Shown: positions 18,384 through 51,189 of the stretch, one piece after another | How the letters are laid out: every line of letters starts with the position of its first letter | How positions within the stretch are numbered: position 1 is the first letter of the stretch | Source of the DNA: Lentisphaerota bacterium | GTDB lineage: Bacteria; Verrucomicrobiota; Kiritimatiellia; CAIQIC01; JAGNIJ01 | Reading direction: 5' to 3' | Assembly: GCA_052033915.1 (NCBI GenBank) | Contig: JBPOJF010000003.1 | Span: 58,695 to 122,694 of the forward strand | DNA length: 64,000 nt | Notes under the pieces: generated by a model | Database searches by the model: none | The model's input: the letters and a program-made list of their open reading frames with translations, nothing else | Told to the model about the DNA's origin: nothing | Made by a program: the position numbers and the translations under genes

Positions 18384-18432
18384 TTTCCAAGGGTTGGAAA
18401 AAAGCGGTTGAATTTTTCCAATCCGTGGAAAG
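18384..18432. repeat. Two copies of the TTTCC-N7-GGAAA palindrome (repeat family C) in a divergent promoter region
   Basis: TTTCCAAGGGTTGGAAAAAA (18384-18403) and TTTTTCCAATCCGTGGAAAG (18413-18432); near-identical copies at 34108-34128 and 51137-51189. Confidence 0.55.
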
Positions 18433-18579
18433 CATACACGGCCCGCGACCGGATTGAAAGGTTGGAGAGGGCCGCGGCGGCGGTTGTGTCCGCGATGGAC
18501 TTGGGACGTGCCTCCGCCGAGGTGCCGGCGGACACGCTTTGGACTTGGGACTTTGGACTTTTTCTTCTACGATCCTGCC

Positions 18580-19476
18580 ATGCTTGAAACTGTCAAACCC
18601 TCTGAAGCGTCCGACTGGCATCTGCGCCTCTTCAGCAAATCGTTGCTGAAGCAGGCGAAGCTCCGGCAAATCGTCAGCCTGCTGGGGCCCGTGTCGGGTC
18701 AGATGTGTCTCGATGTCGGCGGCGATAACGGGGTCATCAGTTGGAACCTGCGGAAGATGGGCGGGACGTGGACCAGCGTGGATTCGAGCGAAAAGGCGGT
18801 CGAATCGATCCGCGGGCTGGTCGGCGAGCGGGTGGAACGAATGACGGGGCCGGTGCTGCCGTTCGAGGACGGCACCTTCGACGTGGTCGTGATTATCGAC
18901 ATGCTGGAGCACCTGCAGGAGGACTACCGGTTTGTGGTCGAGTGTCACCGCGTCCTGAAGCCGAACGGTCGGCTGGTTTTCAACGTGCCGCACGTTAAGC
19001 CGTTCGCGGTTCTTCCGCCGCTCCGGCGGATGCTCGGGCTCACGGATGATCGCCACGGGCACGTGCGGCCGGGGTACACGGAGGCCCAGGTGTTCGACCT
19101 GATGAAGGACGGGTTCGACGTGCAGGAGGCGCGGACCTACTCGCGGTTTTTCGTCGAGGCGCTGGATACCGCGATCCGGTTTGCCGCCTCGCGCGCGAAC
19201 AAGGACGCTCAGGCCGGGGCCAAGGGCGTGCTGATCGACGAGAGGGATTTCGGGAAGATGGATAAGCTGTTCCGCATCTATTCCTTCCTGTATCCGGTTT
19301 TCTGGTTCGCCGCGCAGTTCGACAAGCTCCTCTTCTTCACGAAGGGCTACAGCCTGATCGGCTGGGCCAAGCGCCGCCGCCAGTGGATGCCCCGCAAGGT
19401 CCCGAAGCTGTCCGATGGCCGGTCCATTGCCGAAGCCGCGCTGGGCAGCAAGATCGGAACGGCCACGCCGTTTTGA
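18580..19476 (+). CDS. Class I SAM-dependent methyltransferase
   Basis: CLDVGGDNG motif I, ...DVVVIIDMLEHL..., HRVLKPNGRLVFNVP; ATG 18580; preceded by TTTGGACTT direct repeats. Confidence 0.75.
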   Translation: MLETVKPSEASDWHLRLFSKSLLKQAKLRQIVSLLGPVSGQMCLDVGGDNGVISWNLRKMGGTWTSVDSSEKAVESIRGLVGERVERMTGPVLPFEDGTFDVVVIIDMLEHLQEDYRFVVECHRVLKPNGRLVFNVPHVKPFAVLPPLRRMLGLTDDRHGHVRPGYTEAQVFDLMKDGFDVQEARTYSRFFVEALDTAIRFAASRANKDAQAGAKGVLIDERDFGKMDKLFRIYSFLYPVFWFAAQFDKLLFFTKGYSLIGWAKRRRQWMPRKVPKLSDGRSIAEAALGSKIGTATPF

Positions 19477-19560
19477 AGAGGGGAGTGGCGGAATGCCGGG
19501 GAGTGATGGGGTAAAGCAACCCGCCTTTCCAATACTCCATGACTCCCTTCTCCCAAAGGA

Positions 19561-19590
19561 TTGACTCTGCCCGAAAACCCGTCTAAAAGA
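19561..19590 (+). promoter_or_regulatory. Putative sigma-70-type promoter for the rpmH operon
   Basis: TTGACT, 17-nt spacer, TAAAAG, ~35 nt upstream of rpmH ATG in an AT-rich patch. Confidence 0.3.
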
Positions 19591-19623
19591 TTACGTTTCT
19601 AAATTATTCATAGAGAACAGAGC

Positions 19624-19758
19624 ATGAAACGGACATATCAGCCTTCGAAGATCAAGAGAAAGCGCACGCATGGGTTCCGCAAGCGCATGAAGACGCGGCA
19701 GGGCCGCGAAGTGATTGCCCGCCGTCGCCGCAAGGGACGCAAAAAGCTTTCGGTGTAA
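19624..19758 (+). CDS. rpmH: 50S ribosomal protein L34
   Basis: [44 protein letters not shown], 44 aa; below the ORF-track size cutoff. Confidence 0.92.
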
Positions 19759-19768
19759 AGGAGTTGCG

Positions 19769-20209
19769 ATGCCGGGGAGTCCCGAAACGGCCCCGGAGTC
19801 GGGGCAGTTTCCCCAGGGCCGGAGCACGGGTCCGGGGAAGCCGGATCAGCGGCTGGGACGGAACCAACGCCTGACCCAGGCGTCTCTATTTCAACAGACC
19901 TATGCGCAGGGCCGGCGCGCCATCGGCCGCTTCATGGTCCTGTGGCTTCGCGAGGGGGAGGGCGCCTCCCTGCGGCTGGGCGTGGTGGCGAGCCGTAAAG
20001 TCGGAGGCGCGGTCCAGCGCGCGCGGGCCAAGCGGTTGATGCGGGAAGCGTATCGCCGCCACCGTCACCAGTTGGCCGGTCCGTTCGATGTCGTGCTTGT
20101 GGCGCGGCGCGGGATTCTGGATGCGGCGTGGGATGAGATTGTGAGCGAACTGCTGGCCTTGGCGAAGCGCGCGGGACTGGCGGCCGCCGAGAGGAAACTT
20201 GAGCCTTGA
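19769..20209 (+). CDS. rnpA: Ribonuclease P protein component
   Basis: AAGGAG RBS then ATG 19769; [17 protein letters not shown]...FMVLWL...[27 protein letters not shown]. Confidence 0.9.
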
Positions 20210-20481
20210 AACCTGGAACATGGAACTGGGTTGTCCGATTGCCGTCCCGAATCGCCGTCGGGTTGATCCGGGCGTACCAGTTCGCGCTTTCGCCGCTGGT
20301 CGGGTCTTGCTGCCGGTTTTATCCGACGTGCTCGAATTACATGATGGAGGCCGTTCAAACGCACGGCGCGTGCCGCGGTGTCTGGCTCGGCGTGAAGAGG
20401 CTTTTCAAGTGCCATCCTCTTCATCCGGGCGGCGTGGATCCCGTTCCGGCCGCCGTACAGGCGCGGATTGATAAGAGATGA
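20206..20481 (+). CDS. yidD: Membrane protein insertion efficiency factor YidD
   Basis: [31 protein letters not shown]...[14 protein letters not shown]; TTG start overlapping rnpA stop (TTGA); stop overlaps yidC ATG (ATGA). Confidence 0.8.
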
Positions 20482-22274
20482 AGAAACAAGACATTGTCAT
20501 TTTAGCCGTTCTGTTCGCGCTGTGGATCGCGTGGCCGACCGTCGATCGCCAGCTCAAGAAACGCTTTTTCAAGACCGCGCCCGCGGCGGAGCAGACGGTT
20601 CAGGCGGAGCAGCCGGCCCAGGCGCCGGCCGCCCTCGTGGAATCCCCCGCGTCGGCGGCGGAACCCGTCATCGCGGAATCCCCCGTTGCCGCTCCGGGTG
20701 CGCCGGCGGTTGTCGAGGAACCTTCGCCCGTAGCGCCGGAAAAGACCGCCGTGCTGGAAAACGAGAAGCTGAAGGTGGTCGTTTCCTCGCGCGGCGCGGC
20801 TGTGGTGTCCGCCGAACTGAAGAATTTCCGGACCGCCTTGGATCCCGCCAGCCAGCCGGTGTTTCTCGACTTCGACAGGGACCGGGCGCTGGTGTACTCG
20901 GGGCTCGACGGATTTTCGGCCGGCAGCGATTTCGAGATCTCCGTGTTCGCGGCAGACCGGTCGGTCCGGTTCAGTCGCAGGGCGGCGTCGGGTCTGACCT
21001 TGAGCAGAACGCTCAGCCTCGGCGAGGGGTACAGGCTCAAGGTGACCGACGAACTGAAAAACGAGGCGGCTCAACCGCTTTTTGTCCCGGCCCATTACAT
21101 CCAGATCGGGCCGATGCGTAACCTCGAAGGCGAAACGCCGATTGCGGGTGTGGCCCCCTTGGGGGTGGATACCCTTTCGCCGGGCGGCGAGAAGGTTGCC
21201 TATTGGGGCAACAATATTCCGAAGGGATTCAGCGCCGCGATGGAGGAGAAGGGCCTTCCCAAAATCCCGGTGAGGATCGATTGGCCCATCGACAAGCCTG
21301 TGGATTGGGTGGCGGTCAAAAACAAGTACTTCACGCAGATCCTCACGCCTGACAGCGGTGGCGAGAAGGTGATGGTCCACGCGGTGCGACAGGTTCCGCC
21401 GGCCGAAAGGGCGGATCCGTCGGTCAAGCCCAAGGGGGCCATGATCGAAGAGATCTTCGCGTCCGTTCTGCTTCCCGATCTCAAGATCGGCGCCGGCGAG
21501 GTCATGGCGCGGACGTTCCAGTATTACGTGGGTCCCAAGCAGTACTCGGAGTTGAGCAAGAACGGGCTTCACCAGGTGGATGTCATGGAGTTCGGGATGT
21601 GGAGGGCCATCGGCAAACTGCTCCTCAAGATCATGAACGCCATCCATGATCACCTCTGGCCGCACAACTACGGCGTGGCGATCATTCTCCTGACGATCCT
21701 CGTGCGCATCGTGTTCTGGCCGATCACGCGCAAGAGCACCGAGAGCATGAAGAAGATGCAGGAGATCCAGCCGCTCGTGAAGGCGGTCCAGGTCAAGTAC
21801 AAGGACAACGTTCAGAAACAGCAGCAGGAGATCATGGACCTGTACAAGGAGCACAAGGTCAATCCGCTCGGCGGCTGTCTTCCGATGCTGATCCAGATTC
21901 CGGTCTTCATTGCCCTCTTCGTGGTGTTGCGCAGCGCGATTGAACTGCGGTTCGCGCACTTCCTTTGGATCAAGGATTTGAGCCAGCCGGAGAACCTGTT
22001 CCCGGGCATCCTTCCGTTCGGCCTGTCGCTCAACCTTCTGCCGATCTTCATGGCCGCCACGATGTTCTGGCAGCAGAAGCTCACGCCGAGCGCCGGCGCC
22101 GATCCGAACCAGCAGAAGATCATGGTGTTCATGCCGGTCATGATGCTGGTCATGTTCTACAACTTCGCCTCCGGCCTTGCGCTGTACTGGACGACGCAGA
22201 ATATCCTGATGATAGCCCAGCAACTGTTGATGAAGAAGAAGTCCAAAGTCCAAGGTCTCAAGTCCAAAGTCTGA
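20478..22274 (+). CDS. yidC: Membrane protein insertase YidC
   Basis: N-terminal TM anchor, large periplasmic domain, conserved C-terminal 5-TM core (...[20 protein letters not shown]..., ...[14 protein letters not shown]...); the last ~11 codons come from family-A repeat units. Confidence 0.95.
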
Positions 22275-22318
22275 GCCCATCTTGAGGGTTGACTTTGGAC
22301 CTTGGACGTTGGACGTTG
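22241..22318. repeat. Repeat family A hairpin element spanning the yidC stop codon
   Basis: GTCCAAAGTCCAAGGTCTCAAGTCCAAAGTCTGAGCCCATCTTGAGGGTTGACTTTGGACCTTGGACGTTGGAC. Confidence 0.6.
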
Positions 22319-22328
22319 AACCCGGTTC

Positions 22329-22850
22329 ATGAGCGATCACGATTCAGTCAAAAGAACCCGCGAACAGGCCCAGACCTTCCTGGCGGACGTGCTGCGCCTC
22401 ATGGGGTTTGAAGCCAGGGTCGAGGCGTTCGATCTGCCGGACAACGAGGTTCTTCTGCACATTGAATCGGCCGACGCCGGCCGCCTGATCGGCCGCGACG
22501 CCCAGGGCCTCGCAGCCCTCCAACTGGTGCTGAACCGCATGGTCTGGCGGTCTCCTGAACGCACCGGCCGCTTCATCGTGGACGTCGAACGCTACCGCGA
22601 GCGCAGGAAGGATCGCCTGTTGAACATGGCGCTCAATGCCGCGGAACAAGTCCGGCAGACGGGACATGCCGTGAAACTGGCCCCGATGAACGCCGCGGAC
22701 CGCCGGATTATCCATCATGCGATCATGAATCAAAAGGATCTGCGGACGTGGTCCGAAGTCCTCGATGGCGAACATGAGAAATGCGTTGTTGTGGACAAGG
22801 CCGAGCCGTCTGTCGGCAGCGACTCGCCGCCCGGCAACCACATCCAGTGA
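22329..22850 (+). CDS. jag: Jag/KhpB RNA-binding protein (Jag_N, KH, R3H)
   Basis: Conserved position downstream of yidC; ...LHIESADAGRLIGRDAQGLAALQLVLNRMV... (KH) and ...LAPMNAADRRIIHHAIMNQKDLRTWSE (R3H). Confidence 0.85.
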   Translation: MSDHDSVKRTREQAQTFLADVLRLMGFEARVEAFDLPDNEVLLHIESADAGRLIGRDAQGLAALQLVLNRMVWRSPERTGRFIVDVERYRERRKDRLLNMALNAAEQVRQTGHAVKLAPMNAADRRIIHHAIMNQKDLRTWSEVLDGEHEKCVVVDKAEPSVGSDSPPGNHIQ

Positions 22851-22896
22851 ACAGCAGACGGTGAGGCGCCAGGAAAGGCTTACCCATCTCCCCTCC

Positions 22897-36960: not shown

Positions 36961-36989
36961 TTGACACGTAGTTAGCCTATACGTAATTT
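36961..36989 (+). promoter_or_regulatory. Candidate promoter and palindromes in the AT-rich divergent region upstream of the PEP-CTERM cluster
   Basis: TTGACA (36961-36966), 17-nt spacer, TAATTT; overlapping palindromes CTACGT-ATTGAC-ACGTAG and CGTAATTTACG. Confidence 0.2.
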
Positions 36990-37109
36990 ACGGGAAGCGG
37001 GTGAATTATTTCCCGCTCGGTTGGCGGCCCGAAAAGGTGCGAGGAATGCTTAAAACTTTTCTTGACTGTGTACACGGTTAAGGCAAAAGTGCAACAAGAC
37101 GGAGGCGCT

Positions 37110-37856: not shown

Positions 37857-37903
37857 GTATTTGTAGTATCTAGCGTAATAAACGGTTTGAAAGGAGACCG
37901 CAA

Positions 37904-38545
37904 ATGAAGATTAGGTTACTAGCTACTGTTGCCGCGTTGGTCAGCATGGTTGTTTGCGCAAATGCTCAGGTGCAGGTCGCTTGGTGGAACGAGGAGACGT
38001 CTCCGGGTAGCTTTGTGTACAAAGCAGCGATCGATCCAATTAGTGGACTTGTTGTGATGAGCAGTAGCGCTGATCCGTTGGCTGGCGCATTGTTCCAGTT
38101 GATCGAAGCGGCTGGTGCTGCTCCCTCGGCCCCAACCATTGCGGATTTTGGCATCGGAACAGGTCTCACCGGTGGTGACGCGCTTAATAGTTTCGCTTGG
38201 GCTGGCAAGGATGACTATGGTGCTGGCGTGATCTATGAGTTGGCTGGAGCATTCAGCGGCACAAAGCAACTGTATGTGCGCATTTGGGATCGGCCCACTT
38301 CCGGATCTGGCAATATGCCCAATTCGTTTGACTACGGTGGGGGATTGGTTGGTGCGTATTACTATGACACAGCCGTTGAGAGCTTCACAGGCGTTTCCGG
38401 GAGCCCCTCGGCGGCAGACTTAGACTTCACGCCTCCCACGCAGAATGATTGGACCTTCCTTGCGATACCGGAGCCGACCTCGGTGGCCTTGGGCCTTCTC
38501 GGCTTGGGCGTGATTGTGATCCGTCGTCGCCTGATGCGCAAATAG
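37904..38545 (+). CDS. PEP-CTERM sorting-domain protein (exosortase substrate)
   Basis: AAGGAG RBS; N-terminal signal peptide; C-terminal IPEPTSVALGLLGLGVIVIRRRLMRK (PEP motif + TM + basic tail). Confidence 0.85.
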   Translation: MKIRLLATVAALVSMVVCANAQVQVAWWNEETSPGSFVYKAAIDPISGLVVMSSSADPLAGALFQLIEAAGAAPSAPTIADFGIGTGLTGGDALNSFAWAGKDDYGAGVIYELAGAFSGTKQLYVRIWDRPTSGSGNMPNSFDYGGGLVGAYYYDTAVESFTGVSGSPSAADLDFTPPTQNDWTFLAIPEPTSVALGLLGLGVIVIRRRLMRK

Positions 38546-38567
38546 GTTAGGTCACATCGTTCTCCGC

Positions 38568-38606
38568 GCGGGCGTCCCGGTTTCGGGACGCCCGCGTTGT
38601 TTGTGT
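38568..38606 (+). terminator. Rho-independent terminator after the PEP-CTERM gene
   Basis: Perfect 12-bp stem GCGGGCGTCCCG / CGGGACGCCCGC with GTTT loop, then GTTGTTTGTGT. Confidence 0.8.
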
Positions 38607-38673
38607 AGCGTCGCCCGTCCTCGGGCGAGTTCCGAATTGGTCGTGTCCAGATTCTTTCGCACTTTGGTCTTAG

Positions 38674-39321
38674 GTAGATCATCCATCTGGTCATCCTCCC
38701 TTTCCCCTCTCTAGTATCAACACCGTTGGTTACGTCAAACTTTCCGCCGAGAAGGGCAAGTTGACTCTGGGACGCTTCGATTTCGAGCCCATGAACAAGT
38801 CCGGAGGTCTCACTGTTTCCGACATGTTTGGTGAACAGTTGCCCGTGGGTAGCCGGCTTTATCTTTGGGACAGGTCGGTGAAGATGTTCAAGATCGTCGT
38901 GAAACCTCTCGGTGCGGGTTGGGGCGCGGCAGGGCGTACACGGGTTTCAAGAGGGGAGGGCTTCTGGATTCATGTGCCGGAGTCGGCGGCTTCAAACAGA
39001 TATTCCGTCATCATCACGGGCATGGTTCCCAGCGGCATGACTGCGACGACCACGACGATATCAGGCGTGAATCTGCTCGGCCTGCCGTATCCGGTGGAGA
39101 TGAAGTGGACGAACACGGGTATCGCAAAGACGGCGCCGGTGAATTCGGCCGTGTATCTCTGGAATCAGAGCAATCAAACGTACTTATCCTGTGTGAAGTC
39201 GGCCGGCGCGGGTTGGGATGGGGCCGCAGCGGATGCCATCCTGTATCCCGGACAGGGATTTTGGTTTCGGAATACCGGCACGTTTGAATGGGCGGAAGCG
39301 AAACCATACAGCTGGCCGTAG
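38674..39321 (+). pseudogene. 5'-truncated paralog of the secreted tandem-repeat protein (no signal peptide; homology starts right after a stop codon; only a TTG at 38761 could act as a start)
   Basis: NTVGYVKLSAEKGKLTLGRFDF... aligns with NAVGYVKIDARSNGLTLVSIPF... of the 37110 gene; both end in a ...KPY(T/S)WP terminus; two internal repeats with W(D/N)..Y..GW..G..PG(E/Q)GFW pattern. Confidence 0.5.
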
Positions 39322-39549
39322 TGCAACGGGATTTCAATCGGGGGGTTCATCACACGGTTGTGGGCACGTATCCATGGGGGGCTGAGTAGCTCGGTCGGCC
39401 GGATTCTCGTTTCCTTGGGAAATCCTTCCTACAGGTACGACTGGGCGTTACTGGATTCAGCAAAGGAATATTTCTGTTCTTGGAACGAAGCGCTCAACAA
39501 GAGCGGCCTGATTTTATCCAAACAGGACAGGGAAACAGTTGAGGCCCGC

Positions 39550-42500
39550 TTATCGCTTCAACACTTTCAGCGCGCGTTCGCGCCATTCGCCGGAGAGGTT
39601 GGGGAGGGCTTTCACGGCGAGGTCGAAGCCGTTCTTGGCCTGGCCCTGCGCGATCAGGATCTCGCCTTGTACGAGAGTGTGGTTGGCGTCGTCCGGATCG
39701 ATCGTCGATGCCAGCAGGATATGCTCCATCGCCTTGTCGTACTGCCCAAGGCCCTTGCAGGCCTCGGCGAGCGTGTGGTGGTACTTGTCGTTTGAAGGCT
39801 TCAGATTGACCGCCTCCTGCGCCAGCGTCATGGCTTCGGTGAAGCGGCCCATGCGGACCAAGTCGTAGGCCAGGTTGTTCAGGGCGACATCGTAGAGCGG
39901 ATTGTCTCGATTCTTGAGGCATCGGCGCAAGTAAGTCTCCCTGGCTTCAGGCGTATCCATCAAAGACGCCATGGCCAGGTTCCCGATCATGTTGCCGGGA
40001 TCGCCGGACAGCAACTCTTCGGCCTTCTTGCGCGCTTCGCTGTTCCGTCGCAGTTGCATCGAAAGCCGGATGATGTTCTCGCGCAGGGCTGTGTCCTGCG
40101 GGGTCGTGGCCTCGATCGTCTTCATGTGGCTGAGCGCGGTCGCCAGGTCGCCTTTTTTCTGGGCCACGGACGCCATCAGCTTGAGCATGGGCAGGTTCGC
40201 GGCATCGACGGCCAGGACTTTGCGCGCGAACAACTCCGCCTTGTCGTACTGGTTCAACTGCCATGCCGACATCGCGATAAACGACGCCGAAAGAGTCGTC
40301 TGGTTCGTAGTCGAGAGCAACTGGTTGTAGATGTCCTCCCCGCGCGCCGTATCGCGGTTCTCGAGGTAGAGCAGAGCCAGCAGACTCCGGGCGTTCACGT
40401 TGGCGGCCGACGCCGGGTTCTCCTCCAGAACCTGTATTGCCTTCGCGTAGTCTCTCATGTCCCGCGCCGCGACCGCCAAGCCGATCCGGGCGGAGATGTT
40501 GTCGGGCTGAGTCTGAAGGATGCTGCGGTACTCGGCCTCGGCTTCCGCGAGGTCGCCCTTGCCCTGGGCCAGCAGGGCCGAACTGATCTTCACGGAGAGG
40601 CTGTCCGGGTTGATCATCCGGGCTTGGTTGATCGCGCCGGCTTCCATATCGCGCTGGCCGCCGCGCCGCGCGATGTTGGCCATGTTCAGCGCGAAATGCT
40701 CGGAATAGAGGTATCCGTAGTTCGCAGTCATCATGAACGCGGAACGAAGGAACTTGGGGAACGCCGCCGCTTCTCTCTGGGCCCGCTCCAGAAGGGCCTG
40801 TGCCTTCTGGGTCAGCATCTCCGATCGGACGGTATCGCCGCCGCTGTCGGCTTCCTTGAGGTAGATTGCCCTCTGGTTGAGCAGCGCGCTCGGGTTCTGG
40901 GGCAGGATCTTGAGCGCCAGGTCGTAGGCCTTCTGCGCCAGATCGTCCGACTTCAGCAGTTGCAGGGTCACGCCGAGGTTGTTCGCGCACCGCGAGTAGT
41001 TCTGGCGGACGAACATCTTGAGGGTGTTCGTGCTGTGGTCCGAGATCACCGCTTGGAGCTGATTCGCGAAGGTGTTCTCGAAGTAGTTGACGTTCTTCAG
41101 GTAGACCTCAGATGCCTTCAGGCCGGACAAGTTCTCGACAGGCCGCACCACCAGACCGTTCGGCACGAACTGGTAGCCGATTGACAGGGTCAGGTCGGGA
41201 TTGAACAGCGAACATCCGGCGGGGCCCTTTGCGTTGCCGGACACAATCGCCTTCAGGATGTCCGTTTGCGTGGCGTACGCGGAGGCGTTGATGTTGCATT
41301 CAGGGAATAGGGTGGAGAGGTAACGGCGGTACGATGGCCGACTGATGTCCTGGGCCATGACGATGCGCTCGGGCTGGCCTTCCTCAAAGGCGGCATGAAG
41401 GATCATGTCGTCCATGAAGGAGCGCGAAACGACGAAGACGGGCCGGTTTTCGCACGACCGGACGATGTTCCGGATCAACGCCGTCAGTTCGGGGGTCCGC
41501 GGCGGCACGAAGTGGATGTAGTTCATCACGGCGGTCACGATGGCGATCACGAGGTTCGCGATAGCCGCGGTCTTCCAGACCGGCCTCATCCACAGGGAGG
41601 ATAAGTTCGGGCTCGGGATCACCGCGCGAAACCACCAGTATCCCGCGAGATATCCCATCCACGACGCGATCGCGAGATAGGGGATCAGGAAGGGGTCGTT
41701 CAGACCCATGATGATCGTCGGCGTCATGCCCTTCTCGAGGATCTGCGCGACGCCGAGCACGTTCAGCACAAGCAGGGTGACGATGGTCAGCGCATGCGCG
41801 AGCCGCGTCGAGCCGTAATCCGGCCGCGGCACCAGATACACGTAGATCCACGGCACAAACGCGCAGAGCGCGATCAGAAGACCGCCGACACGCGGAAAGA
41901 TGGATTTGACCTCCAAGTACTGCTTGCGCCACAGATCCAGCAGGACGTTCCAGAACCCCGAGTATTCCTGATATCCCCACTCGGGCAGGCGGGCGACGGC
42001 CCCGACAGGCACGATGTAGAAGAGAAGGCCGCAGAAACCAAGGGCGACGAGCAGCCACAGCCGCTTGGCCGTCAACGCGCGCCGGTACAGCAGGGCGACG
42101 AGCGCCGCGATGACGAAGACAGGGCCGAGAGCGATCATTGTCGCGTATTCGGTGACTCCGAGCCCGTAGAGTAGCGCGGCCCCCATGATCCACCGGACGC
42201 TCGCGTTGGCTCGCGCGTACTGGAGGACCATCCAGAAGCACGACAGCAGGATGAAGAGGTCGAACGTGTGGTTGTCCGGCCGCGTGGAGGCAGTCCACAG
42301 CGGCGCGCAGAACATGACGAACAGCGCGGACGCCAGGATCGCCACGCTCTTTGACGCGCGGGACGCGCCGGCGGGGATCGGCGACGCCTTGTCGTGCACG
42401 ACGAACATCGGCAGTCGGTTCAGCAACTGCACGAACAGGACGATCGAAAGGGATCCGAACACGGCGGAAATGAGATTGAGGTTCATGAGGGTCGGACCGG

Positions 42501-42717
42501 GCATCACGCGAACCACGAGCTTCGCGAGCGAGGAATAGAGGAAGTGCGGGAGCACGGGGAGGTAGTAAAGCCCGTTGACGGTGTTGATGATTCGGACTGA
42601 TGTTCCCGGAACAACATCGCGGACCATTGTCGCGAGGTACAGAATAAAGGATCCGATTCCCGCGATCCACGGTGTTAGGCCGGCCAGCTTGGACAATGGA
42701 TGTTTCGATCCCTGCAT
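39550..42717 (-). CDS. GT-C-fold membrane glycosyltransferase-like protein (DUF2723/TMEM260- and PMT-like N-terminal multi-TM domain) with C-terminal TPR array, paralog 1
   Basis: ~450-aa polytopic N-terminus (LYLATMVRDVVPGTSV... loop-1 acidic motif), ~600 aa of TPR repeats; same architecture as the 45624-48620 gene. Confidence 0.55.
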   Translation of the reverse strand: MQGSKHPLSKLAGLTPWIAGIGSFILYLATMVRDVVPGTSVRIINTVNGLYYLPVLPHFLYSSLAKLVVRVMPGPTLMNLNLISAVFGSLSIVLFVQLLNRLPMFVVHDKASPIPAGASRASKSVAILASALFVMFCAPLWTASTRPDNHTFDLFILLSCFWMVLQYARANASVRWIMGAALLYGLGVTEYATMIALGPVFVIAALVALLYRRALTAKRLWLLVALGFCGLLFYIVPVGAVARLPEWGYQEYSGFWNVLLDLWRKQYLEVKSIFPRVGGLLIALCAFVPWIYVYLVPRPDYGSTRLAHALTIVTLLVLNVLGVAQILEKGMTPTIIMGLNDPFLIPYLAIASWMGYLAGYWWFRAVIPSPNLSSLWMRPVWKTAAIANLVIAIVTAVMNYIHFVPPRTPELTALIRNIVRSCENRPVFVVSRSFMDDMILHAAFEEGQPERIVMAQDISRPSYRRYLSTLFPECNINASAYATQTDILKAIVSGNAKGPAGCSLFNPDLTLSIGYQFVPNGLVVRPVENLSGLKASEVYLKNVNYFENTFANQLQAVISDHSTNTLKMFVRQNYSRCANNLGVTLQLLKSDDLAQKAYDLALKILPQNPSALLNQRAIYLKEADSGGDTVRSEMLTQKAQALLERAQREAAAFPKFLRSAFMMTANYGYLYSEHFALNMANIARRGGQRDMEAGAINQARMINPDSLSVKISSALLAQGKGDLAEAEAEYRSILQTQPDNISARIGLAVAARDMRDYAKAIQVLEENPASAANVNARSLLALLYLENRDTARGEDIYNQLLSTTNQTTLSASFIAMSAWQLNQYDKAELFARKVLAVDAANLPMLKLMASVAQKKGDLATALSHMKTIEATTPQDTALRENIIRLSMQLRRNSEARKKAEELLSGDPGNMIGNLAMASLMDTPEARETYLRRCLKNRDNPLYDVALNNLAYDLVRMGRFTEAMTLAQEAVNLKPSNDKYHHTLAEACKGLGQYDKAMEHILLASTIDPDDANHTLVQGEILIAQGQAKNGFDLAVKALPNLSGEWRERALKVLKR

Positions 42718-45623: not shown

Positions 45624-48620
45624 CTACAGCATCGGCATTCCGGGAAGGCTCATGGGGAGGCCCGGCTGCTGGATCGGGGGCACCAAGGCCTTGAACTCAT
45701 GGTTCTCGCGCACGGGATTGAACCGCGGATCTTTCCGGATCACATCGCGTACCGGCTCTCCGCCGAGTTCGATGGCGCGCTTGATCGATTGCACGCACTC
45801 GTTCGGTTTCTGCATGGCCGCCTGGATGGCCGCGAGATCGATCCACACATTGGGGTTCGCGGGCTCGCGGGCCAGGTATTTCTCGAGGGCCGTGGCCAGG
45901 AGATCCATGCGCTTGGCGTCCGCATACATCTTGGCGACGGCCAAGTAGGCGTTCGGCGGGATGTTCGTATCGTTCAGAATGCTCATGGTCAGGCCCTGGA
46001 ACTGGCCTTCGAGGTTGAGCTTGCGGTACAGATCCGCCAGTTCCATGGCCGTGTTCAGTTCGCCCTGTCCCTGGTTGAACTGCGCTTCGAGTTGCGCGCG
46101 CCGGTTGTCCGCTTTCTCGGTCTCGCGGATCTGGTTCAGGAAATCGCCGACCTTGGCGTTGCCGGGATCCTCGCGGAGGAATGCGTCAATCAGCTTGCCG
46201 GCATCGGAGAAACGCCGCTGCTGCATGAGGACGTCCGCCAGCCGGAAATTGGCCTCCGGGCTGAGCGGGTAGAGGTCAATGGCCTGCTGGAAGGCGTACT
46301 CGGCCTCGGGGAACATGCGGCGATAGGCATAGATGCCCGCGATCGCGCCGCGCAGCTTGGAGAACGTTTTCCGGGCCACCACGTCGCGCAGGAACTTGGG
46401 GTTTCCGAGCAGGCGCTGCGTGTACCAGTCCCAGAAATCGCGGTCCTTCTTCACCAGTTCCGGCGACAGGGACGGCAGCGGGTCTGAGTTCAGCTTCATG
46501 ATCAGCCCGTTGGGGGTGAGGTAGGGGTACATCCACGGGATGACGTAACTTTCTTCGACGTAGAATGCGTGCTTGTGCTTGTTGGCCTCGAAGATCATCC
46601 GGCACAGGATGCCGTTGATCATCATGACGCCCTGCACGCCCTGCACGCTGACGCGTCCGTTATCGAACTGCACATCCGCGCCCGGGGGGATGCGCCCGGC
46701 CTGCACGTCCTCCACGTACTTCTGGAACGCGAAATTGCTGTCCTGCTGCGACGGAATCCAGATCGTGTCGCCGTACAGGTCGCGCATGACGCTCATGTAC
46801 GTGTTGTCGGCCAGCGCATTCTGCGTAATGAGGTACACATCCGACCGCACCTTGGCGCAGTAGATCATGTACGTGGGGACGAACCGTCCGGGGTCGGTGC
46901 CCCCGAAGAAAATCGCGTTGGTGTCCATCGGCGGGGGGTAATCCGGCGTGGGATACTGCTTCCAGATCTGTTCGAATTCCTCCGCGGACTTCTTGTAACC
47001 GAGGTCCGATCGAATTCCGTCCACACCCTGAAGCTGCCAGTTGCCGAATTGCCAGCCGAAGTCGTGCTGGTTCTGCTCGGCCCCGCCGACGATCTTGATC
47101 TGCTCCTTGTCGTACGCGTTCTGATACAGGAGCACCGCCGGGAACACGACGACGATGACCAGGGCCAGCGGCTTGATGATGCCGCGCCCGCCGAGAAGCG
47201 TTTCAAGATAGGCGAGCGCAAAGAGGGCTCCGTACCCGAGCCAGATGGCGTACACCGCGTGCGACTGGATGAATTGCACGCGGCCGATGAAGAGCGTCTG
47301 GATATCCAGGTCGGGGTTCTGGAATGTGATGAGAACAATGCTGAGCGAGACGAACGCGACCAGCGAGGTGATCAGCCAGGTCCGGCCCCGGCGGTCGATG
47401 CGTCCGATGAAGAAGAAGGGCACCAGGCCGATGAGGGCAAGGGGAAGCGTGAACTGTTGGCGCAGATCCTTGAAGTACGCGCCCAACTGCGCGACGAACT
47501 TGGCCGAGAAGATGTCCGACGCGGTGATCTTCTCGTATTGCCCGCGCGTGAGGGCGTGCTTGAAGCCTTCCGGCGTGCGGGGGTATCCCCAGTTGATCGG
47601 GGGGTTCTGCTCGGAGGAGATGGGCATGAACCCGTTGAACCCGAGCCCCAGCAGGCACAGACTGCCGATGAGCAGGACGCGCTTCCATTCGGTCATGAGC
47701 TTGCGCTCGATCAGGAACAGGCCCACGGGCGCGAGCAGGAACAACACCGCCATCGTGGTTGTTGTGTTCTTCGAGCGCAGGACTTCCGGCGAGAGGTGGC
47801 CGGTCATGGCGCCGGCTTTCCAGAACAGGTACCCGGAAACGCAGAGGGACAGCGCGGCCATGCAGTCGCGGAAGAGCGAGCGGTCGCGGAACCAGATGGC
47901 GGTCACCAGCGCCGGGCCGACGAAGAGAAGGGTCTGGTGGTTCGTGATGCCGAATCCGAACAGGAACGCGGTGATGTAGAGGATTTTGTCCTCCTTCGGC
48001 CGGCACATCCACATGTACGTCAGGAGGAGCAGAAGCATCTGGAAGAAGGCGTTCAGCGCGTACACCTCGACGATGACCGCCTGGGACCAGAGCACGGGGC
48101 TGAAGGCCAGCAGGAGTCCGCCGGTGACGCCGCCGACCCAGCACAAGAGGCTTTCCGTGGAGATCCCGATCACGTCCGTGGTCTTCTTCACGCTGCGGAG
48201 CATGTCCGTTCCGGAGCGGCTGACCAGGAGAGCGAGCATCCCGCAGGCGAGGGCTCCGAAGAAGGCCGAGGCCAGTCCGACGCTCCACGCCGGATTCGGA
48301 TTCCCGTAGTAGCGAACCCAGCCGAAGATCCATTGGAAGAACCATGTGAACAACGTCCAACTGGGATATCCCGGCGGGTGCGGGACGCCGAGATAGTCCG
48401 AACCCACGGCCAGTTCGCCGCTGTCTTCCAGCGTGACGGTGGGGGCCAGGGTGTAGCAGTACACGCCGAAGGTGATCAGGAAGGTGGTCCAGAACGCCCC
48501 CCAGTCCAGTTTCCGGAAGAAGGCGCCGCTTTGATGGTCGAAGAACGCGGCTTTCTCTTCCGGAGATTGCGAAACGGCTTGGGCACGCACGGTTTTATTC
48601 GGGTTTTTATGATCAGCCAT
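45624..48620 (-). CDS. GT-C-fold membrane glycosyltransferase-like protein (DUF2723/TMEM260-like) with C-terminal TPR array, paralog 2
   Basis: ...YCYTLAPTVTLEDSGELAVGSDYLGVPHPPGYP... N-terminal loop motif typical of DUF2723; ~11 TM helices; C-terminal TPR repeats (...YAFQQAIDLYPLSPEANFRLADVLMQQRRFSDAGKL...). Confidence 0.7.
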   Translation of the reverse strand: MADHKNPNKTVRAQAVSQSPEEKAAFFDHQSGAFFRKLDWGAFWTTFLITFGVYCYTLAPTVTLEDSGELAVGSDYLGVPHPPGYPSWTLFTWFFQWIFGWVRYYGNPNPAWSVGLASAFFGALACGMLALLVSRSGTDMLRSVKKTTDVIGISTESLLCWVGGVTGGLLLAFSPVLWSQAVIVEVYALNAFFQMLLLLLTYMWMCRPKEDKILYITAFLFGFGITNHQTLLFVGPALVTAIWFRDRSLFRDCMAALSLCVSGYLFWKAGAMTGHLSPEVLRSKNTTTTMAVLFLLAPVGLFLIERKLMTEWKRVLLIGSLCLLGLGFNGFMPISSEQNPPINWGYPRTPEGFKHALTRGQYEKITASDIFSAKFVAQLGAYFKDLRQQFTLPLALIGLVPFFFIGRIDRRGRTWLITSLVAFVSLSIVLITFQNPDLDIQTLFIGRVQFIQSHAVYAIWLGYGALFALAYLETLLGGRGIIKPLALVIVVVFPAVLLYQNAYDKEQIKIVGGAEQNQHDFGWQFGNWQLQGVDGIRSDLGYKKSAEEFEQIWKQYPTPDYPPPMDTNAIFFGGTDPGRFVPTYMIYCAKVRSDVYLITQNALADNTYMSVMRDLYGDTIWIPSQQDSNFAFQKYVEDVQAGRIPPGADVQFDNGRVSVQGVQGVMMINGILCRMIFEANKHKHAFYVEESYVIPWMYPYLTPNGLIMKLNSDPLPSLSPELVKKDRDFWDWYTQRLLGNPKFLRDVVARKTFSKLRGAIAGIYAYRRMFPEAEYAFQQAIDLYPLSPEANFRLADVLMQQRRFSDAGKLIDAFLREDPGNAKVGDFLNQIRETEKADNRRAQLEAQFNQGQGELNTAMELADLYRKLNLEGQFQGLTMSILNDTNIPPNAYLAVAKMYADAKRMDLLATALEKYLAREPANPNVWIDLAAIQAAMQKPNECVQSIKRAIELGGEPVRDVIRKDPRFNPVRENHEFKALVPPIQQPGLPMSLPGMPML

Positions 48621-48759: not shown

Positions 48760-49656
48760 TTACCTCAACAACAGGATCCCGGCCACGGTCAAGCCGTACA
48801 GCGCCAGGTCCGCCAGCAGCGGTTTATCCGTCAGAAGGATCACCTCCGGCTGGCCGCCTTTTTCGTGGCGATAGACCAGGTCGAGGTAGCGGAACAGGCC
48901 GAAGATTACGAACGGGATGGTCAGGCCAAGCTTGGTCGTTCCGAACTTGGCGACGGTATCCGGCCACAGCGTGTACAGCGCGTAGGAAATCAGCGTGGCC
49001 GCGCTGACCACGGCAATCAACTGGTCCAGGAGCTGGCTGCTGTACTGCGCGAGGCTTTCGCGCGTTTCGCCGCCCGTGTCGTTGATCACGACGAACTCGT
49101 GCCGCCGCTTGCAGAGCGCAAGGAAGAGCGCCAGCAGCAGGGCGCACAGGAGCAGCCAGGGCGAAATCGGCACCTGGAGAACGACGGCTCCCGCCAGGGC
49201 GCGGAGGACGAAGCCGGAGGCGATCACGAACAGGTCAACCAGCGCGATCTGCTTCAGCGCGAACGTGTACACGAATTGCAGCGCCACGTAGCCCGCCACG
49301 ACGTAGAAGAACGGCACGGAGAGCCACGCCGCCGCGCCGAGCCCGGCGGCAAGAAGCAGAAAGGCCGTCGCCGCCGCGGTCGCAGTCGAAATCTCGCCGG
49401 CGGCCAGCGGGCGCAGTTTCTTCGTCGGATGCGCCCGGTCCAGCTCCACGTCGCGGATGTCGTTGATCAGGTAAATGCCGCTCGATACGGCGCAGAACAG
49501 GAGGGCCGCCTTCAGTACGATCCAGAAATCGGCGAGGCTGACGTTCAAATGCCGGTCGCCGAGGGCGAAGATGAACGCGGCCAGCACGACAATGTTCTTC
49601 GTCCACTGCCGGGGCCGCATGGCTTGAACGATGCTGGCCGGCCGGGGCTTGCTCAT
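48760..49656 (-). CDS. UbiA-family prenyltransferase resembling decaprenyl-phosphate phosphoribosyltransferase
   Basis: AMRPRQWTKN N-terminal signature of the DPPR-synthase subfamily; NDIRDVELD aspartate-rich motif; 8-9 TM helices; start overlaps upstream gene stop (ATGA). Confidence 0.75.
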   Translation of the reverse strand: MSKPRPASIVQAMRPRQWTKNIVVLAAFIFALGDRHLNVSLADFWIVLKAALLFCAVSSGIYLINDIRDVELDRAHPTKKLRPLAAGEISTATAAATAFLLLAAGLGAAAWLSVPFFYVVAGYVALQFVYTFALKQIALVDLFVIASGFVLRALAGAVVLQVPISPWLLLCALLLALFLALCKRRHEFVVINDTGGETRESLAQYSSQLLDQLIAVVSAATLISYALYTLWPDTVAKFGTTKLGLTIPFVIFGLFRYLDLVYRHEKGGQPEVILLTDKPLLADLALYGLTVAGILLLR

Positions 49657-50420
49657 GATCCGCTTCCGCCTGCCTTCACGCTTCTCGCGTTGCGCTCATC
49701 CGGCACGGAGCGTTTCAGCCTGTTCCGGAACAGGAGTTTCCAAACCATCCAGAGGGCCTCGCGCACGATCGACGAGTTCATCTTCGAGTGGCCGGAGCGG
49801 CGTTCCTCGAACGTGATCGGCACCTCGACGACATGGAAGCCGCGCCGCCAGGTCTCGTTGGTCATCTCGATCTGGAACGAGTAGCCGTTGGACTTGATCC
49901 GGTCCAGATCGATGGACTCCAGAACCGCGCGGCGATAGCACTTGAACCCGCCGGTCGGATCGGAAAACGGCATGCCGGTGACCAGGTGGACATAGATGGC
50001 CGCGCCCTTGCTCAAAATCAGCCGGCTCAGCGGCCAGTTGATGATCCGGATGCCGCCCACGTAGCGCGAGCCGAGGGCCAGGTCGGCCTCCTGCGCCGCG
50101 TCGAGAATCCGCGGTAGATCGTTCGGGTTGTGGGAGAAATCGGCGTCCATCTCGAAGATGAACTCGTAACCGCGCTCCAGCGCCCACTTGAAGCCCGCGA
50201 TGTACGCGCGGCCGAGCCCCTGCTTGCCTTCCCGGTGGAGGCCGTGGATGCGCGGGTCCTGGGCCGCGAGTTCGTCGACGATCCGCCCGGTGCCGTCGGG
50301 GGAGTTGTCGTCCACAAAAAGGATGTGCCCTTCCGGCAGGGCGGCCAGAACGGCCTTGGAAACGTCCCGGACGTTTTCCTTCTCGTTGTAGGTTGGGATG
50401 ACGACCAGAGCCCGGTTCAT
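49653..50420 (-). CDS. GT2 polyprenyl-phosphate mannose/hexose synthase (DPM1/Ppm1-like)
   Basis: VVIPTYNEKENV, FVDDNSPDGT, GKQGLGRAYIAGF, FEMDADFSHNP (DxD) motifs. Confidence 0.85.
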   Translation of the reverse strand: MNRALVVIPTYNEKENVRDVSKAVLAALPEGHILFVDDNSPDGTGRIVDELAAQDPRIHGLHREGKQGLGRAYIAGFKWALERGYEFIFEMDADFSHNPNDLPRILDAAQEADLALGSRYVGGIRIINWPLSRLILSKGAAIYVHLVTGMPFSDPTGGFKCYRRAVLESIDLDRIKSNGYSFQIEMTNETWRRGFHVVEVPITFEERRSGHSKMNSSIVREALWMVWKLLFRNRLKRSVPDERNARSVKAGGSGS

Positions 50421-50482
50421 GCCCCGGTACTTTAGGGGAAGGGTTCCAAAACAGCAAGTCCCGCGTGGAGGGGGCCGACGGA

Positions 50483-50510
50483 TTGATTTGCCTCAAAAGC
50501 AGGATATAAT
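50483..50510 (+). promoter_or_regulatory. Near-consensus sigma-70 promoter for def
   Basis: TTGATT (50483-50488), 16-nt spacer, TATAAT (50505-50510); def ATG at 50526 implies a very short leader. Confidence 0.45.
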
Positions 50511-50525
50511 AAACACAAACGTCCC

Positions 50526-51089
50526 ATGAAACTGGAGATTCGAAAATACGGCGACCCGGTGCTGCGCGAAAAAGCGGAGCCCGTGAAGTCCGTGGACGAC
50601 CGGATCCGCGCACTGGCCAGGGACATGATCGAGACCATGCACGGAGACAACGGCGGCGTCGGGCTGGCCGCCCAGCAGGTCGGGGAGACCGTGTCCGTCT
50701 GCGTGATCGAAGTGCCGGCCGAATACGACGCGGACGAAAACGGGGTGCGCCTCAACCCCGACGTGAAGATGCCGCTCGTCCTGATCAACCCGGTGATGGT
50801 CGAATCGTCCAAGGAGACGGAAGCGCGCGATGAGGGATGCCTCAGTTTCCCCGGGATCTACGCGCCCGTCCGGCGTCCCGTGGAGATCGCGATCGAATAC
50901 CTGGACACGAACGGAAAATCGCGGAGCCTGCGGCTCCGGCACTTCGTGGCGCGCGTTGTCCAGCACGAGATGGATCACCTGAACGGCGTGCTGCTGGTCG
51001 ACCGCATGACCCACCTCAAGAAAATCGCGCTCGCCGGCCAGCTCAAGCGGATGAGGCGCGAGACGCGCGAAGAGCTGGGCGTGAAGTAG
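50526..51089 (+). CDS. def: Peptide deformylase
   Basis: GVGLAAQQVG, EGCLSFPG, QHEMDHLNG motifs. Confidence 0.95.
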   Translation: MKLEIRKYGDPVLREKAEPVKSVDDRIRALARDMIETMHGDNGGVGLAAQQVGETVSVCVIEVPAEYDADENGVRLNPDVKMPLVLINPVMVESSKETEARDEGCLSFPGIYAPVRRPVEIAIEYLDTNGKSRSLRLRHFVARVVQHEMDHLNGVLLVDRMTHLKKIALAGQLKRMRRETREELGVK

Positions 51090-51136
51090 CCGCCGGCGCA
51101 AGCCGGTGGAATCCGTCCGGCAACGCTCTTGCGAGC

Positions 51137-51189
51137 TTTTTTCCAAGGGTTGGAAAAAGCGCCCGGAAATTTTCCAAGGATTGGAAGAA
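51137..51189. repeat. Two copies of the family-C palindrome between convergent def and parA
   Basis: TTTTTTCCAAGGGTTGGAAAAAG (51137-51158) and TTTTCCAAGGATTGGAAGAA (51170-51189), the latter abutting the parA stop codon. Confidence 0.55.

Follow-up and report, generated by a model that had tools for sequence, protein, structure and literature searches.

A phased 19-bp palindrome of Kiritimatiellota, probably an operator array for a dimeric DNA-binding protein

What is the function of the near-identical short palindromes that recur in the window, the 64-kb stretch of DNA analysed here? A sequence-only reading had located five of them, held that their recurrence was not due to chance, and offered three explanations: binding sites for a dimeric DNA-binding protein, a small mobile element, or hairpin terminators. 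All five were confirmed at the claimed positions as genuine copies of a 19-bp motif, TTTTCCAAK-S-MTTGGAAAA, with four exact matches to the core TTCCAA-NNN-TTGGAA and one match with a single mismatch. The claim that they are not chance occurrences also held, as the four exact cores compare with none in any of 100 dinucleotide-preserving shuffles. The hexamers TTCCAA and TTGGAA each occurred 12 times in the window, four to five of each inside the palindrome sites, and half-sites standing alone were present at chance-level number. A two-mismatch match at 29577 is also at chance level.

Two of the sites, none of which is assigned a strand, lie upstream of a minus-strand gene for a TGS/uridine-kinase-type nucleoside kinase. 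Site 1 (TTTCCAAGGGTTGGAAAAA, 18383–18401; exact core, 18385–18399) has its core end 3 nt from the kinase ATG at 18381, a start supported by orthologue lengths of 557–570 aa. Site 2 (TTTCCAATCCGTGGAAAG, 18414–18432; core, 18416–18430), the distal member of this array, has one core mismatch and reads TTCCAC-GGA-TTGGAA in the reverse orientation. The array was found upstream of the kinase gene in six of six orthologous lineages and was kept at 94, 84, 81, 71 and 65% protein identity despite a differing neighbour gene. On the strand of the kinase gene, the array is immediately preceded by a conserved element, CCGTGTATGC (18432–18441, minus strand), which resembles a –10 box (TATGCT) and has TTTCAA 17 nt upstream; CCGTGTA(T/G) adjoins the array likewise in four other loci (L231, L232, L233 and L241). 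The element was not called by a consensus promoter scan. We consider it a putative promoter, and the array is probably part of the kinase 5' UTR.

The second pair is located between the convergent genes def and parA. Site 4 (TTTTCCAAGGGTTGGAAAA, 51139–51157; exact core, 51141–51155) is followed 31 bp away by site 5 (TTTTCCAAGGATTGGAAGA, 51170–51188; exact core, 51172–51186), whose 19-bp span ends 1 nt short of the parA stop codon (51190–51192), so that the kinase-gene and def/parA pairs have the same centre-to-centre distance of 31 bp, a match that the sequence-only reading does not mention. An array adjoins parA in four of six lineages: directly after the stop codon in the window, in L237 (88% identity) and in L240 (68% identity, three sites), and, in L242, on the upstream side of the gene. 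L239 has no array after parA, where a canonical bidirectional terminator takes its place.

The remaining exact site (34107–34125; core, 34109–34123) is within plsY (33684–34340, minus strand), where it translates to FFPILGK(W); a degenerate partner with three core mismatches (TTCCGGACCTTGGAC, 34077–34091) lies 32 bp away. The codons used are rare in the window (CCA, 3%; CTT, 10%; GGA, 14%; TTT, 18% of their synonymous sets), in agreement with the earlier remark that FFPILGKW is encoded unusually here. Conservation of this site rests on the one close relative found, L151, whose 67%-identical orthologue carries TTCCAATGTTTGGAA on the same codons and a one-mismatch site at the equivalent +32 position. 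The encoded peptide is FPMFGK in L151 versus FPILGK in the window. Distant PlsY orthologues lack the site. The nearest orthologue thus keeps the DNA motif and not the amino acids, and the comparison of orthologues favours a signal at the DNA level.

A motif scan of 185,579 species genomes returned 119 loci, 101 of them assigned to Kiritimatiellota-type genomes. Additional near-matches were present in 93 of these 101; the 18 loci from other phyla had the seed match alone, with no further sites, and are isolated chance occurrences. Among the phyla sampled, the motif is restricted to Kiritimatiellota, where it is concentrated in Pontiella, Tichowtungia and Kiritimatiellales MAGs, and the identical motif is common to Kiritimatiellia and Tichowtungiia. 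Control metagenome loci contained one site in 357 kb. Estimates of cluster density were far apart, about one per 9 kb in motif-seeded loci versus about one per 70 kb in gene-anchored loci.

The anatomy of the arrays was drawn from about 0.9 Mb of related DNA. An array comprises one to five copies; up to four are common, and five were seen only once. The centre-to-centre distance of adjacent sites was 31 bp in 69 and 32 bp in 33 of 150 pairs, with minor peaks at 22, 42, 62–63, 73, 94 and 105 bp. Over all 150 pairs the spacing was strongly phased (Rayleigh R = 0.87 at a period of 10.5 bp), and phasing persisted when the 29–34 bp peak was removed (R = 0.685, p ~ 4e-9, best period 10.3 bp). Linkers are conserved neither within nor between arrays; because those within an array are unrelated, duplication does not account for the spacing, which is constrained. 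The central base was G or C in 273 of 283 non-seed sites (96%; 140 G, 133 C), and flanks and centre differ between lineages. The preferred bases at positions 9 and 11 mirror each other (K/M), and the two positions do not covary (89 complementary pairs vs 80 expected). Departures from the consensus were changes in a single half-site in 361 cases versus double changes in 94, that is, half-sites degrade independently.

Sites were found in 5' regions, at 3' ends, in gaps between convergent genes and in gene interiors in all three reading frames (58/40/31). Predicted ORFs contain nearly half of the clusters, and about one third of clusters are deep in genes or between convergent genes. Intragenic sites showed no orientation bias relative to transcription, the sense strand reading GGN 32 times and NCC 38 times. 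Among gene-proximal arrays, 42 of 100 end no more than 30 nt from a start codon, and a Shine-Dalgarno-like GGAG/AGGA often follows immediately. Where a sigma-70-type promoter can be recognised (rpsT in L122, L038 and the kinase gene), its –10 is closely followed by the array. For most intragenic sites, the plsY site among them, alignments with orthologues and paralogues are free of gaps; small length differences coincide with a few intragenic arrays (L093, L119). Judged from these alignments, the intragenic sites arose by substitution, with use of rare codons, and not by insertion. No recurrent transcription-factor family was found beside the arrays, the 79 flanking proteins matching 91 Pfam families, nor was a common function found among array-adjacent genes, which is unusual for a classical regulon.

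We think it probable that the palindromes are cooperative operator arrays for a putative Kiritimatiellota-specific homodimeric double-stranded-DNA-binding protein with the role of a global regulator or of a nucleoid protein. The first explanation offered by the sequence-only reading, a site for a dimeric protein, is supported by the dyad symmetry with its G:C centre, the independent decay of half-sites, the absence of strand bias, the phasing at about 10.4 bp and the conservation in orthologues. We infer that such a protein exists, is oligomeric and affects transcription. The two monomers would read a half-site each (TTTTCCAAK), to the left and right of the G:C centre, and dimers at neighbouring sites would touch along one helix face; arrays of two to five sites at three helical turns (31–32 bp) or other near-whole-turn spacings are proposed to result from this contact. 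The protein would be active at tens to hundreds of loci per genome, like a global regulator or a nucleoid-associated protein. An array filling the interval from the –10 to the ribosome-binding site, as at the kinase gene, might block initiation or early elongation, and arrays at gene ends or inside genes (parA/def, plsY) might act as roadblocks, insulators or architectural anchors. Against the operator reading, the third of clusters that are deeply intragenic or between convergent genes leave a classical operator with no obvious job. No Lrp, HU or ParB homologue was detected in 942 kb with E. coli and B. subtilis queries, a search that says little because 942 kb is about a quarter of one genome.

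Several known regulators share parts of this architecture. Lrp/AsnC arrays (Ss-LrpB boxes; E. coli Lrp at gltBDF and pap) consist of ~13–15-bp dyad boxes with a short centre, placed 31–32 bp or ~63 bp apart on one helix face, to which several dimers, commonly assembled as an octamer, bind cooperatively; an octamer corresponds to about four sites. The arrays here are alike in the number of sites; however, the Lrp/AsnC boxes have a different sequence (TTGYAW-WWW-WTRCAA; YAGHAWATTWTDCTR), their A/T-rich centre is replaced here by G:C, and the 22- and 42-bp spacing classes misfit a rigid octamer. NrdR is an oligomerising repressor with two palindromic 16-bp boxes that overlap promoters and face the same side of the helix at a distance of 31–32 bp. 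Its consensus (acaCwAtATaTwGtgt) is unrelated to the motif, and its regulons are essentially nrd genes, unlike the 91 Pfam families, the up to five sites and the intragenic positions seen here. CodY (AATTTTCWGAAAATT) and CcpA (cre), families best known in Firmicutes, each have ~100–300 sites per genome, which lie in coding sequences as well as in promoters and 5' UTR regions, with palindromes of 15–16 bp and documented roadblock repression, but their sites are far more degenerate than the motif here and lack strictly phased arrays.

Alternatively, the palindrome might act in RNA: transcripts that carry it in 5' UTRs, between cistrons, in 3' UTRs or in coding sequence would form a UUUUCCAA-NNN-UUGGAAAA hairpin. 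Such a hairpin might tune the stability, processing or translation of the mRNA, perhaps with the help of an RNA-binding protein, and base pairing between two copies could give a duplex of ~20 bp. Many arrays abut a ribosome-binding region or a stop codon, the kinase-gene array is probably transcribed as 5' UTR, and the kinase-gene pair folds into one long hairpin (–19.6 or –26.9 kcal/mol, z ~ –5.7). The missing orientation bias is compatible with this reading, and the orientation test alone is insufficient against an RNA role, because a palindrome gives the same stem from both strands. Compensatory double changes were modestly in excess (40 observed vs 23 ± 4 in shuffles), but uncompensated changes in single half-sites predominate. 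A lone hairpin is weak (~ –7 kcal/mol, z = –1.6), shuffled sequences fold as well as the def/parA pair, and there was no Rfam match. The 10.3–10.5 bp helical period, including the 22- and 42-bp classes, has no RNA rationale; positions 9 and 11 are mirror-symmetric yet unable to pair over a 1-nt loop; and a centre with G and C equally frequent and A/T almost never fits a G:C pair at a DNA dyad. We regard a function at the RNA level as unlikely.

Less likely still, in our estimate, is that the arrays are centromere-like sites at which a partner of the orphan ParA, either ParB/Noc/KorB-like or of another kind, loads or nucleates, with a role in segregation or nucleoid positioning and not in gene regulation. 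The arrays that follow the parA stop codon occupy the usual place of parB, which was absent beside parA at all seven loci examined, and the window holds no canonical parS. It does combine three site clusters in 64 kb with origin-type genes (rnpA, yidC, parA and ftsK). Intragenic palindromes at conserved positions are typical of parS, NBS, SBS and matS; the Noc site NBS (ATTTCCCGGGAAAT) has the outer TTTCC...GGAAA in common with the motif, the KorB operator OB (TTTAGCSGCTAAA) has a central S, and the repeats of F sopC form a phased array, one roughly every four helical turns. In contrast, ParB-family sites differ from the motif in length and sequence, and the copy number and three-turn cooperativity here are atypical of that family; chromosomal ParB–parS systems are not known to have strict three-turn cooperative arrays. 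Sites are spread over at least 14 contigs of a single MAG, neighbour genes are highly diverse, and the parA link covers four of six lineages only, with an ordinary bidirectional terminator taking the position in L239.

A selfish or mobile repeat of the REP/BIME, MITE or Rickettsia-palindromic-element kind, spreading and able to land in-frame as the sequence-only reading had suggested, is very improbable. It would be in keeping with tens to hundreds of copies of a short, often clustered palindrome, frequent at 3' ends and between convergent genes (REP/BIME elements are likewise abundant, clustered and often at gene ends, and Rickettsia palindromic elements lie in-frame within genes), and with the small length differences at the L093 and L119 intragenic arrays. 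REP sequences are normally species- or genus-specific, whereas this motif is phylum-wide, in both Kiritimatiellia and Tichowtungiia, and occupies orthologous positions in distant lineages. Gap-free alignments at most intragenic sites, the plsY site on the same codons in L151, the unrelated linkers, the helically phased spacing and the presence of nearly half of the clusters in predicted ORFs point away from insertion.

We give a similarly small chance to a DNA uptake sequence, built up genome-wide through biased uptake and recombination of own-species DNA. Such a sequence could be clade-wide, over-represented in intergenic DNA and in permissive coding positions in all frames, of substitutional origin, and variable in centre and flanks between lineages. 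Known uptake sequences, however, lack symmetry and have a density of about one per kb, against about one per 10–70 kb here; the unit is the full palindrome, with isolated half-sites at chance level, and neither phased arrays of up to five sites nor gene-specific positional conservation is predicted. The cyanobacterial HIP1 (GCGATCGC) is also a clade-wide over-represented palindrome of unresolved function, in coding and non-coding DNA at positions kept between species, but it is 8 bp long, recurs every few hundred bp and lacks phased arrays.

Least probable of all are short bidirectional intrinsic terminators, the third of the earlier explanations: in places an array takes up the interval between convergent genes, and in L239 a terminator stands after parA in place of an array, but the AT-rich stem is weak, it is followed in both directions by an A-run (the T-run being on the 5' side), many sites lie upstream of starts or inside genes, phylum-wide conservation of sequence would be needless, and the genome has canonical terminators with a GC-rich hairpin and U-tract, e.g. 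at 4160–4200. Two supposed shorter relatives, at 4191–4204 (N4 spacer) and 39410–39422 (N3, vs N7 in the 19-bp family), proved to be unrelated to the motif and at chance level: about 1.6 TTTCC/GGAAA pairs with spacers of 0–11 are expected from their counts and two were seen outside N7, the one at 4191–4204 being the tail of a canonical intrinsic terminator.

Five copies of the palindrome TTCCAA-NNN-TTGGAA with T- and A-rich flanks are present in the window where the sequence-only reading had placed them, as reading the sequence at those coordinates confirmed. Exact cores start at 18385, 34109, 51141 and 51172; the copy at 18416 carries one mismatch and shows the same asymmetric centre reversed. 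No exact core match was obtained in 100 dinucleotide-preserving shuffles of the window, which has a G+C content of ~63% and contains 12 TTCCAA and 12 TTGGAA hexamers. Isolated half-sites occur at chance level in the window; the full palindrome is the unit. The two "shorter relatives" proposed earlier were dropped from the family: their spacers differ (N4 at 4191, N3 at 39410), their frequency is at chance level, and the one at 4191-4204 is just the tail of a canonical intrinsic terminator downstream of ORF 3682-4137 (4160-4204, GGCCCGCGG-AAAT-CCGCGGGCC followed by a T-rich tail, -31 kcal/mol).

The gene identities proposed earlier for the surroundings of these sites agree with our follow-up. 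One pair (18383-18401 and 18414-18432) lies upstream of a gene for a nucleoside kinase of the PRK/uridine-kinase type with a fused TGS-type N-terminus (16693-18381, minus strand), divergent from a methyltransferase gene. A second pair (51139-51157 and 51170-51188) separates the convergent genes def and parA, and the single site at 34107-34125 lies inside plsY (33684-34340, minus strand). Centre-to-centre spacing is 31 bp in both intergenic pairs. The plsY site is indeed written in codons unusual for this genome, each accounting for 3-27% of its synonymous set in window codon usage. An Rfam search of the window returned tRNA only, with no match to the motif.

The motif was then sought with the scan pattern TTTCCAAGGRTTGGAAA in one genome per species (185,579 species), and at least 119 loci matched. 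Among the matches listed, 101 of the at least 119 loci were assigned, from record titles and the presence of further sites, to Kiritimatiellota-type genomes: Pontiella, Pontiellaceae isolates, Tichowtungia, Kiritimatiellales and Kiritimatiellia MAGs, and MAGs labelled Lentisphaerae or Verrucomicrobia. In the NCBI taxonomy, Pontiella belongs to Kiritimatiellia and Tichowtungia to Tichowtungiia, both classes of Kiritimatiellota. Additional sites (≤1 mismatch) were found in 93 of these 101 loci, which together hold 385 such sites in 708 kb, while the 18 listed loci from other phyla contain the seed match only; 357 kb of unrelated metagenome loci, taken as a control, contain one site. Several motif copies, some 31-32 bp apart, also occur in four IMG/VR contigs classed as viral (L005, L009, L013 and L017, 56-61% G+C), which are either phages or prophages of Kiritimatiellota that have the motif in common with their host, or pieces of host DNA wrongly classed as viral. 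Estimates of density are approximate and vary with the way the loci were chosen: motif-seeded loci, including Pontiella-type and related MAGs, have ~1 cluster per 9 kb, and in gene-anchored loci arrays other than those at the anchor gene are rare (~3 in 210 kb), so the window's lineage probably has tens to ~100 arrays per genome. A literature search for a Kiritimatiellota motif, the motif strings and the taxon names found no description of the motif.

Site alignments gave the consensus TTTTCCAAK-S-MTTGGAAAA. In the alignment of partner sites, core positions are 90-95% conserved and mirror-symmetric, and the half-sites degenerate independently. G or C occupies the centre in 273 of the 283 non-seed sites (140 G, 133 C). 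Positions 9 and 11 show mirror-image preferences in these sites, and covariation between them was not seen (89 complementary pairs observed vs 80 expected). The 239 clusters comprise 139 with one site, 74 with two, 15 with three, 10 with four and 1 with five. Among 150 adjacent pairs, 102 are spaced by 31 bp (69) or 32 bp (33), and minor classes occur at 22, 42, 62-63, 73, 94 and 105 bp. A 10.5-bp periodicity persists when the main spacing peak is removed (Rayleigh R = 0.685, p ~4e-9), and the best-fitting period is 10.3 bp. This pattern indicates putative proteins bound to a single face of the B-form helix. The linkers of an array bear no relation to each other, and an origin of the arrays by tandem duplication was rejected on this ground.

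Array positions are conserved between orthologous genes down to 65-68% protein identity. A metagenome scan with PlsY recovered mostly other phyla, with one close orthologue (L151, 67% identity). The plsY gene of L151 has an exact site at the same codons as in the window and a second site 32 bp away, at a position where the window retains a degenerate remnant; the peptides encoded there differ (FPMFGK...FFQCSE in L151, FPILGK...MVQGPE in the window). In more distant PlsY proteins the site is absent and the length unchanged. The earlier suggestion of a mobile element inserted in frame into plsY is not supported, there being no indel at the site against seven PlsY orthologues.

In nucleoside-kinase orthologues at 94, 84, 81, 71 and 65% identity, sites precede the gene in every case, even as the upstream neighbour varies (methyltransferase, asparagine synthase, C25 peptidase, Pel9A-like gene, rpmH). 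A conserved CCGTGTA(T/G) element adjoins the kinase-gene array in every lineage (window 18432-18441; kinase-gene loci L231, L232, L233 and L241); it lies 5' of the array in most lineages and 3' of the single site in L241, and the kinase promoter may have its -10 region here. At parA (51190-52062), an array directly follows the stop codon in the window and in the orthologous loci L237 (88% identity) and L240 (68%, three sites), and lies upstream of the gene in L242 (65% ParA identity). In the two other parA loci the array is missing: an HNH endonuclease gene (10888-11274) immediately follows parA in L238, and a canonical bidirectional terminator stands there in L239. In four of the five orthologous loci, L240 being the exception, rmuC is found immediately or shortly upstream of parA, a place held by a sulfotransferase gene in the window. 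All ParA orthologues have a variable C-terminal tail (281-336 aa).

Placement relative to genes was scored with a self-trained codon-usage gene finder whose calls in related loci are crude; about half of the clusters are intergenic, and 89/189 lie inside predicted ORFs. Since none of the motif's reading frames contains a stop codon, start codons called close to arrays are uncertain and ORF-based calls tend to extend through upstream arrays. Some of the ORF-internal clusters are such over-extended calls; many lie deep within genes, and confirmed intragenic cases include plsY and sulfatase genes. Over-extension is likely a systematic annotation error in related genomes; in the window (18384-18435) it places an ATG at 18435 vs the true start at 18381. 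Intragenic sites occupy all three frames with no orientation bias to the sense strand (centre orientation 32 vs 38). Most of the 56 site-spanning alignments to orthologues or paralogues that were inspected are ungapped at the site, and on these alignments intragenic sites are judged to have arisen by substitution, not insertion.

Intergenic clusters with both neighbours resolved number 54 between tandem, 14 between divergent and 10 between convergent genes, by impression close to the usual mix. Among 100 gene-proximal arrays, 42 end ≤30 nt from the start codon, and a Shine-Dalgarno-like sequence often follows directly. No fixed promoter element was found upstream of arrays in general; at recognisable sigma-70-type promoters (rpsT in L122, locus L038 and the kinase gene), the array begins just downstream of the -10. 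A role of the arrays as promoters was rejected: TTGGAA could serve as a -35, but the next copy, 17 nt downstream, provides TCCAAT, which as a -10 fails for want of the key A at hexamer position 2, and the spacing required of a sigma-54 promoter is absent. Array-flanked genes are heterogeneous (79 proteins matching 91 Pfam families), and the genes behind the largest arrays are dnaE, a glyA fusion, mfd, the rpsM region, tatD, cvpA and polysaccharide-related genes.

Together, the dyad symmetry with a G:C centre, independent half-site decay and helical phasing, along with the absence of strand bias, unrelated linkers, origin by substitution through rare codons and long-term positional conservation, point to a putative homodimeric dsDNA-binding protein that binds phased sites cooperatively and acts at many conserved loci. 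Such a protein would be a global regulator or a nucleoid-associated protein. The kinase-gene array takes up the whole stretch from the -10-like element to the ATG, a position that would suit a repressor or roadblock. Lrp/AsnC- and NrdR-type arrays are most alike in mechanism, with three-turn spacing and oligomers of dimers: the sites described here are likewise dyad-symmetric, ~15-19 bp long and built of two half-sites, and adjacent ones are set some three turns apart along one side of the helix. In distribution, global regulators of the CodY or CcpA type are alike and have intragenic sites. By inspection, however, the Lrp, Ss-LrpB and NrdR boxes do not resemble TTTTCCAAK-S-MTTGGAAAA; as the motif matches none of these consensus boxes, family membership is not claimed. 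A tblastn search with sequences of E. coli Lrp, HupA, Fis and CRP and B. subtilis Spo0J gave no candidate binder in 942 kb of sampled DNA (about a quarter of one genome), the only matches being the Fis-type HTH of an NtrC-like regulator at 307-1674 and a cNMP-binding domain. No DNA-binding family recurs among the 79 downstream proteins (91 Pfam families); a GntR gene (L042) and an Rrf2 gene (L045) near arrays are single cases.

A further reading, which we regard as unlikely, takes the sites as nucleation points of a Kiritimatiellota-specific chromatin-like system, in which a putative oligomeric protein would wrap or bridge DNA at three-turn arrays in conserved 5', 3' and intragenic places and couple genome architecture to growth-gene expression. 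This protein could be a disc of the Lrp kind or a partner of the orphan ParA resembling ParB or KorB. If true, the PVC superphylum would have a sequence-specific nucleoid organiser of a new type, or a partition system that does without ParB. That the sites are centromere or chromosome-organisation sites tied to the orphan ParA is very unlikely: they are widely scattered, and the parS consensus TGTTNCACGTGAAACA has one 3-mismatch match in the window, which is chance level. ParA is an orphan in that parA has no ParB-domain gene as a neighbour, either in the window or in the five orthologous loci (L237-L240 and L242), which come from related genomes sampled as 8-22-kb pieces.

An RNA hairpin acting in transcripts is disfavoured. 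The palindrome does yield the same stem from either strand, but the spacing follows the DNA helical repeat, G and C are equally used at the centre, sequence changes are mostly uncompensated, and a single hairpin is weak (~-7 kcal/mol). The intrinsic terminators suggested earlier are not supported: this AT-rich hairpin precedes an A-run and offers no stable GC-rich stem with U-tract, vs -31 kcal/mol with a U-tract for the canonical terminator at 4160-4200. REP/BIME elements should be extragenic, lineage-specific in sequence and quick to turn over in position, yet the sites often lie within ORFs, one and the same motif is shared by Pontiella, Tichowtungia and Kiritimatiellales MAGs, and orthologous positions are retained; Y1_Tnp (RAYT) is not among the 25 most frequent Pfam families of the 79 array-flanked proteins. 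A CsrA/Rsm-type array would present strand-specific GGA loops, whereas centre orientation is unbiased, GGA forms the centre in only 17/283 non-seed sites and Rfam gave no match. Rickettsia palindromic elements would appear as insertions against orthologues, where the PlsY and most intragenic alignments are ungapped, and DNA uptake sequences (DUS/USS) would have an asymmetric core at about one copy per kb, vs a full palindrome at ~1 per 10-70 kb here.

Kiritimatiellota are abundant anaerobic degraders of sulfated polysaccharides; to our knowledge, almost nothing is known of their gene regulation and chromosome organisation. A sharp 19-bp motif whose three-turn architecture is fixed and whose targets (among them the nucleoside kinase, parA, plsY, dnaE, mfd and genes for ribosomal proteins) are conserved offers a direct route to a putative major DNA-binding protein, for which the oligonucleotide TTTTCCAAGGCTTGGAAAA could serve as bait. 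Were this putative binder the partner of the orphan ParA, it would bear on chromosome segregation without parB beside parA. The motif also accounts for unusual codon choices and for start codons called too far upstream in these genomes, and is a potential taxonomic marker for binning Kiritimatiellota contigs and their phages.

Other features of the window were recorded. An origin-type cluster of rnpA, yidC and a Jag-like KH/R3H gene lies at 19769-22850, and rpmH adjoins rnpA in relatives; GC skew remains above zero throughout the window, with no sign of a switch at an origin or terminus. The G+C content falls to 54-57% at 36000-40000 vs ~63% elsewhere, and ORFs 37068-37856 and 38974-39321 have no Pfam match; this region may be a small acquired island. 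An HNH endonuclease gene (3041-3628) lies next to an NtrC-type two-component pair. FtsK (52919-57349) is unusually long at 1476 aa, with ~690 residues before its 4TM domain, relatives in L239 and L242 having 790 and 864 aa; downstream of ftsK come a RodZ-like HTH_25 gene and one for a CDP-alcohol phosphatidyltransferase, as they do in both these loci. Two large paralogues of TMEM260-like (O-mannosyltransferase-type) plus TPR architecture (39550-42717 and 45624-48620) flank a FecCD-type ABC transporter, an arrangement that recurs in L237 and L238.
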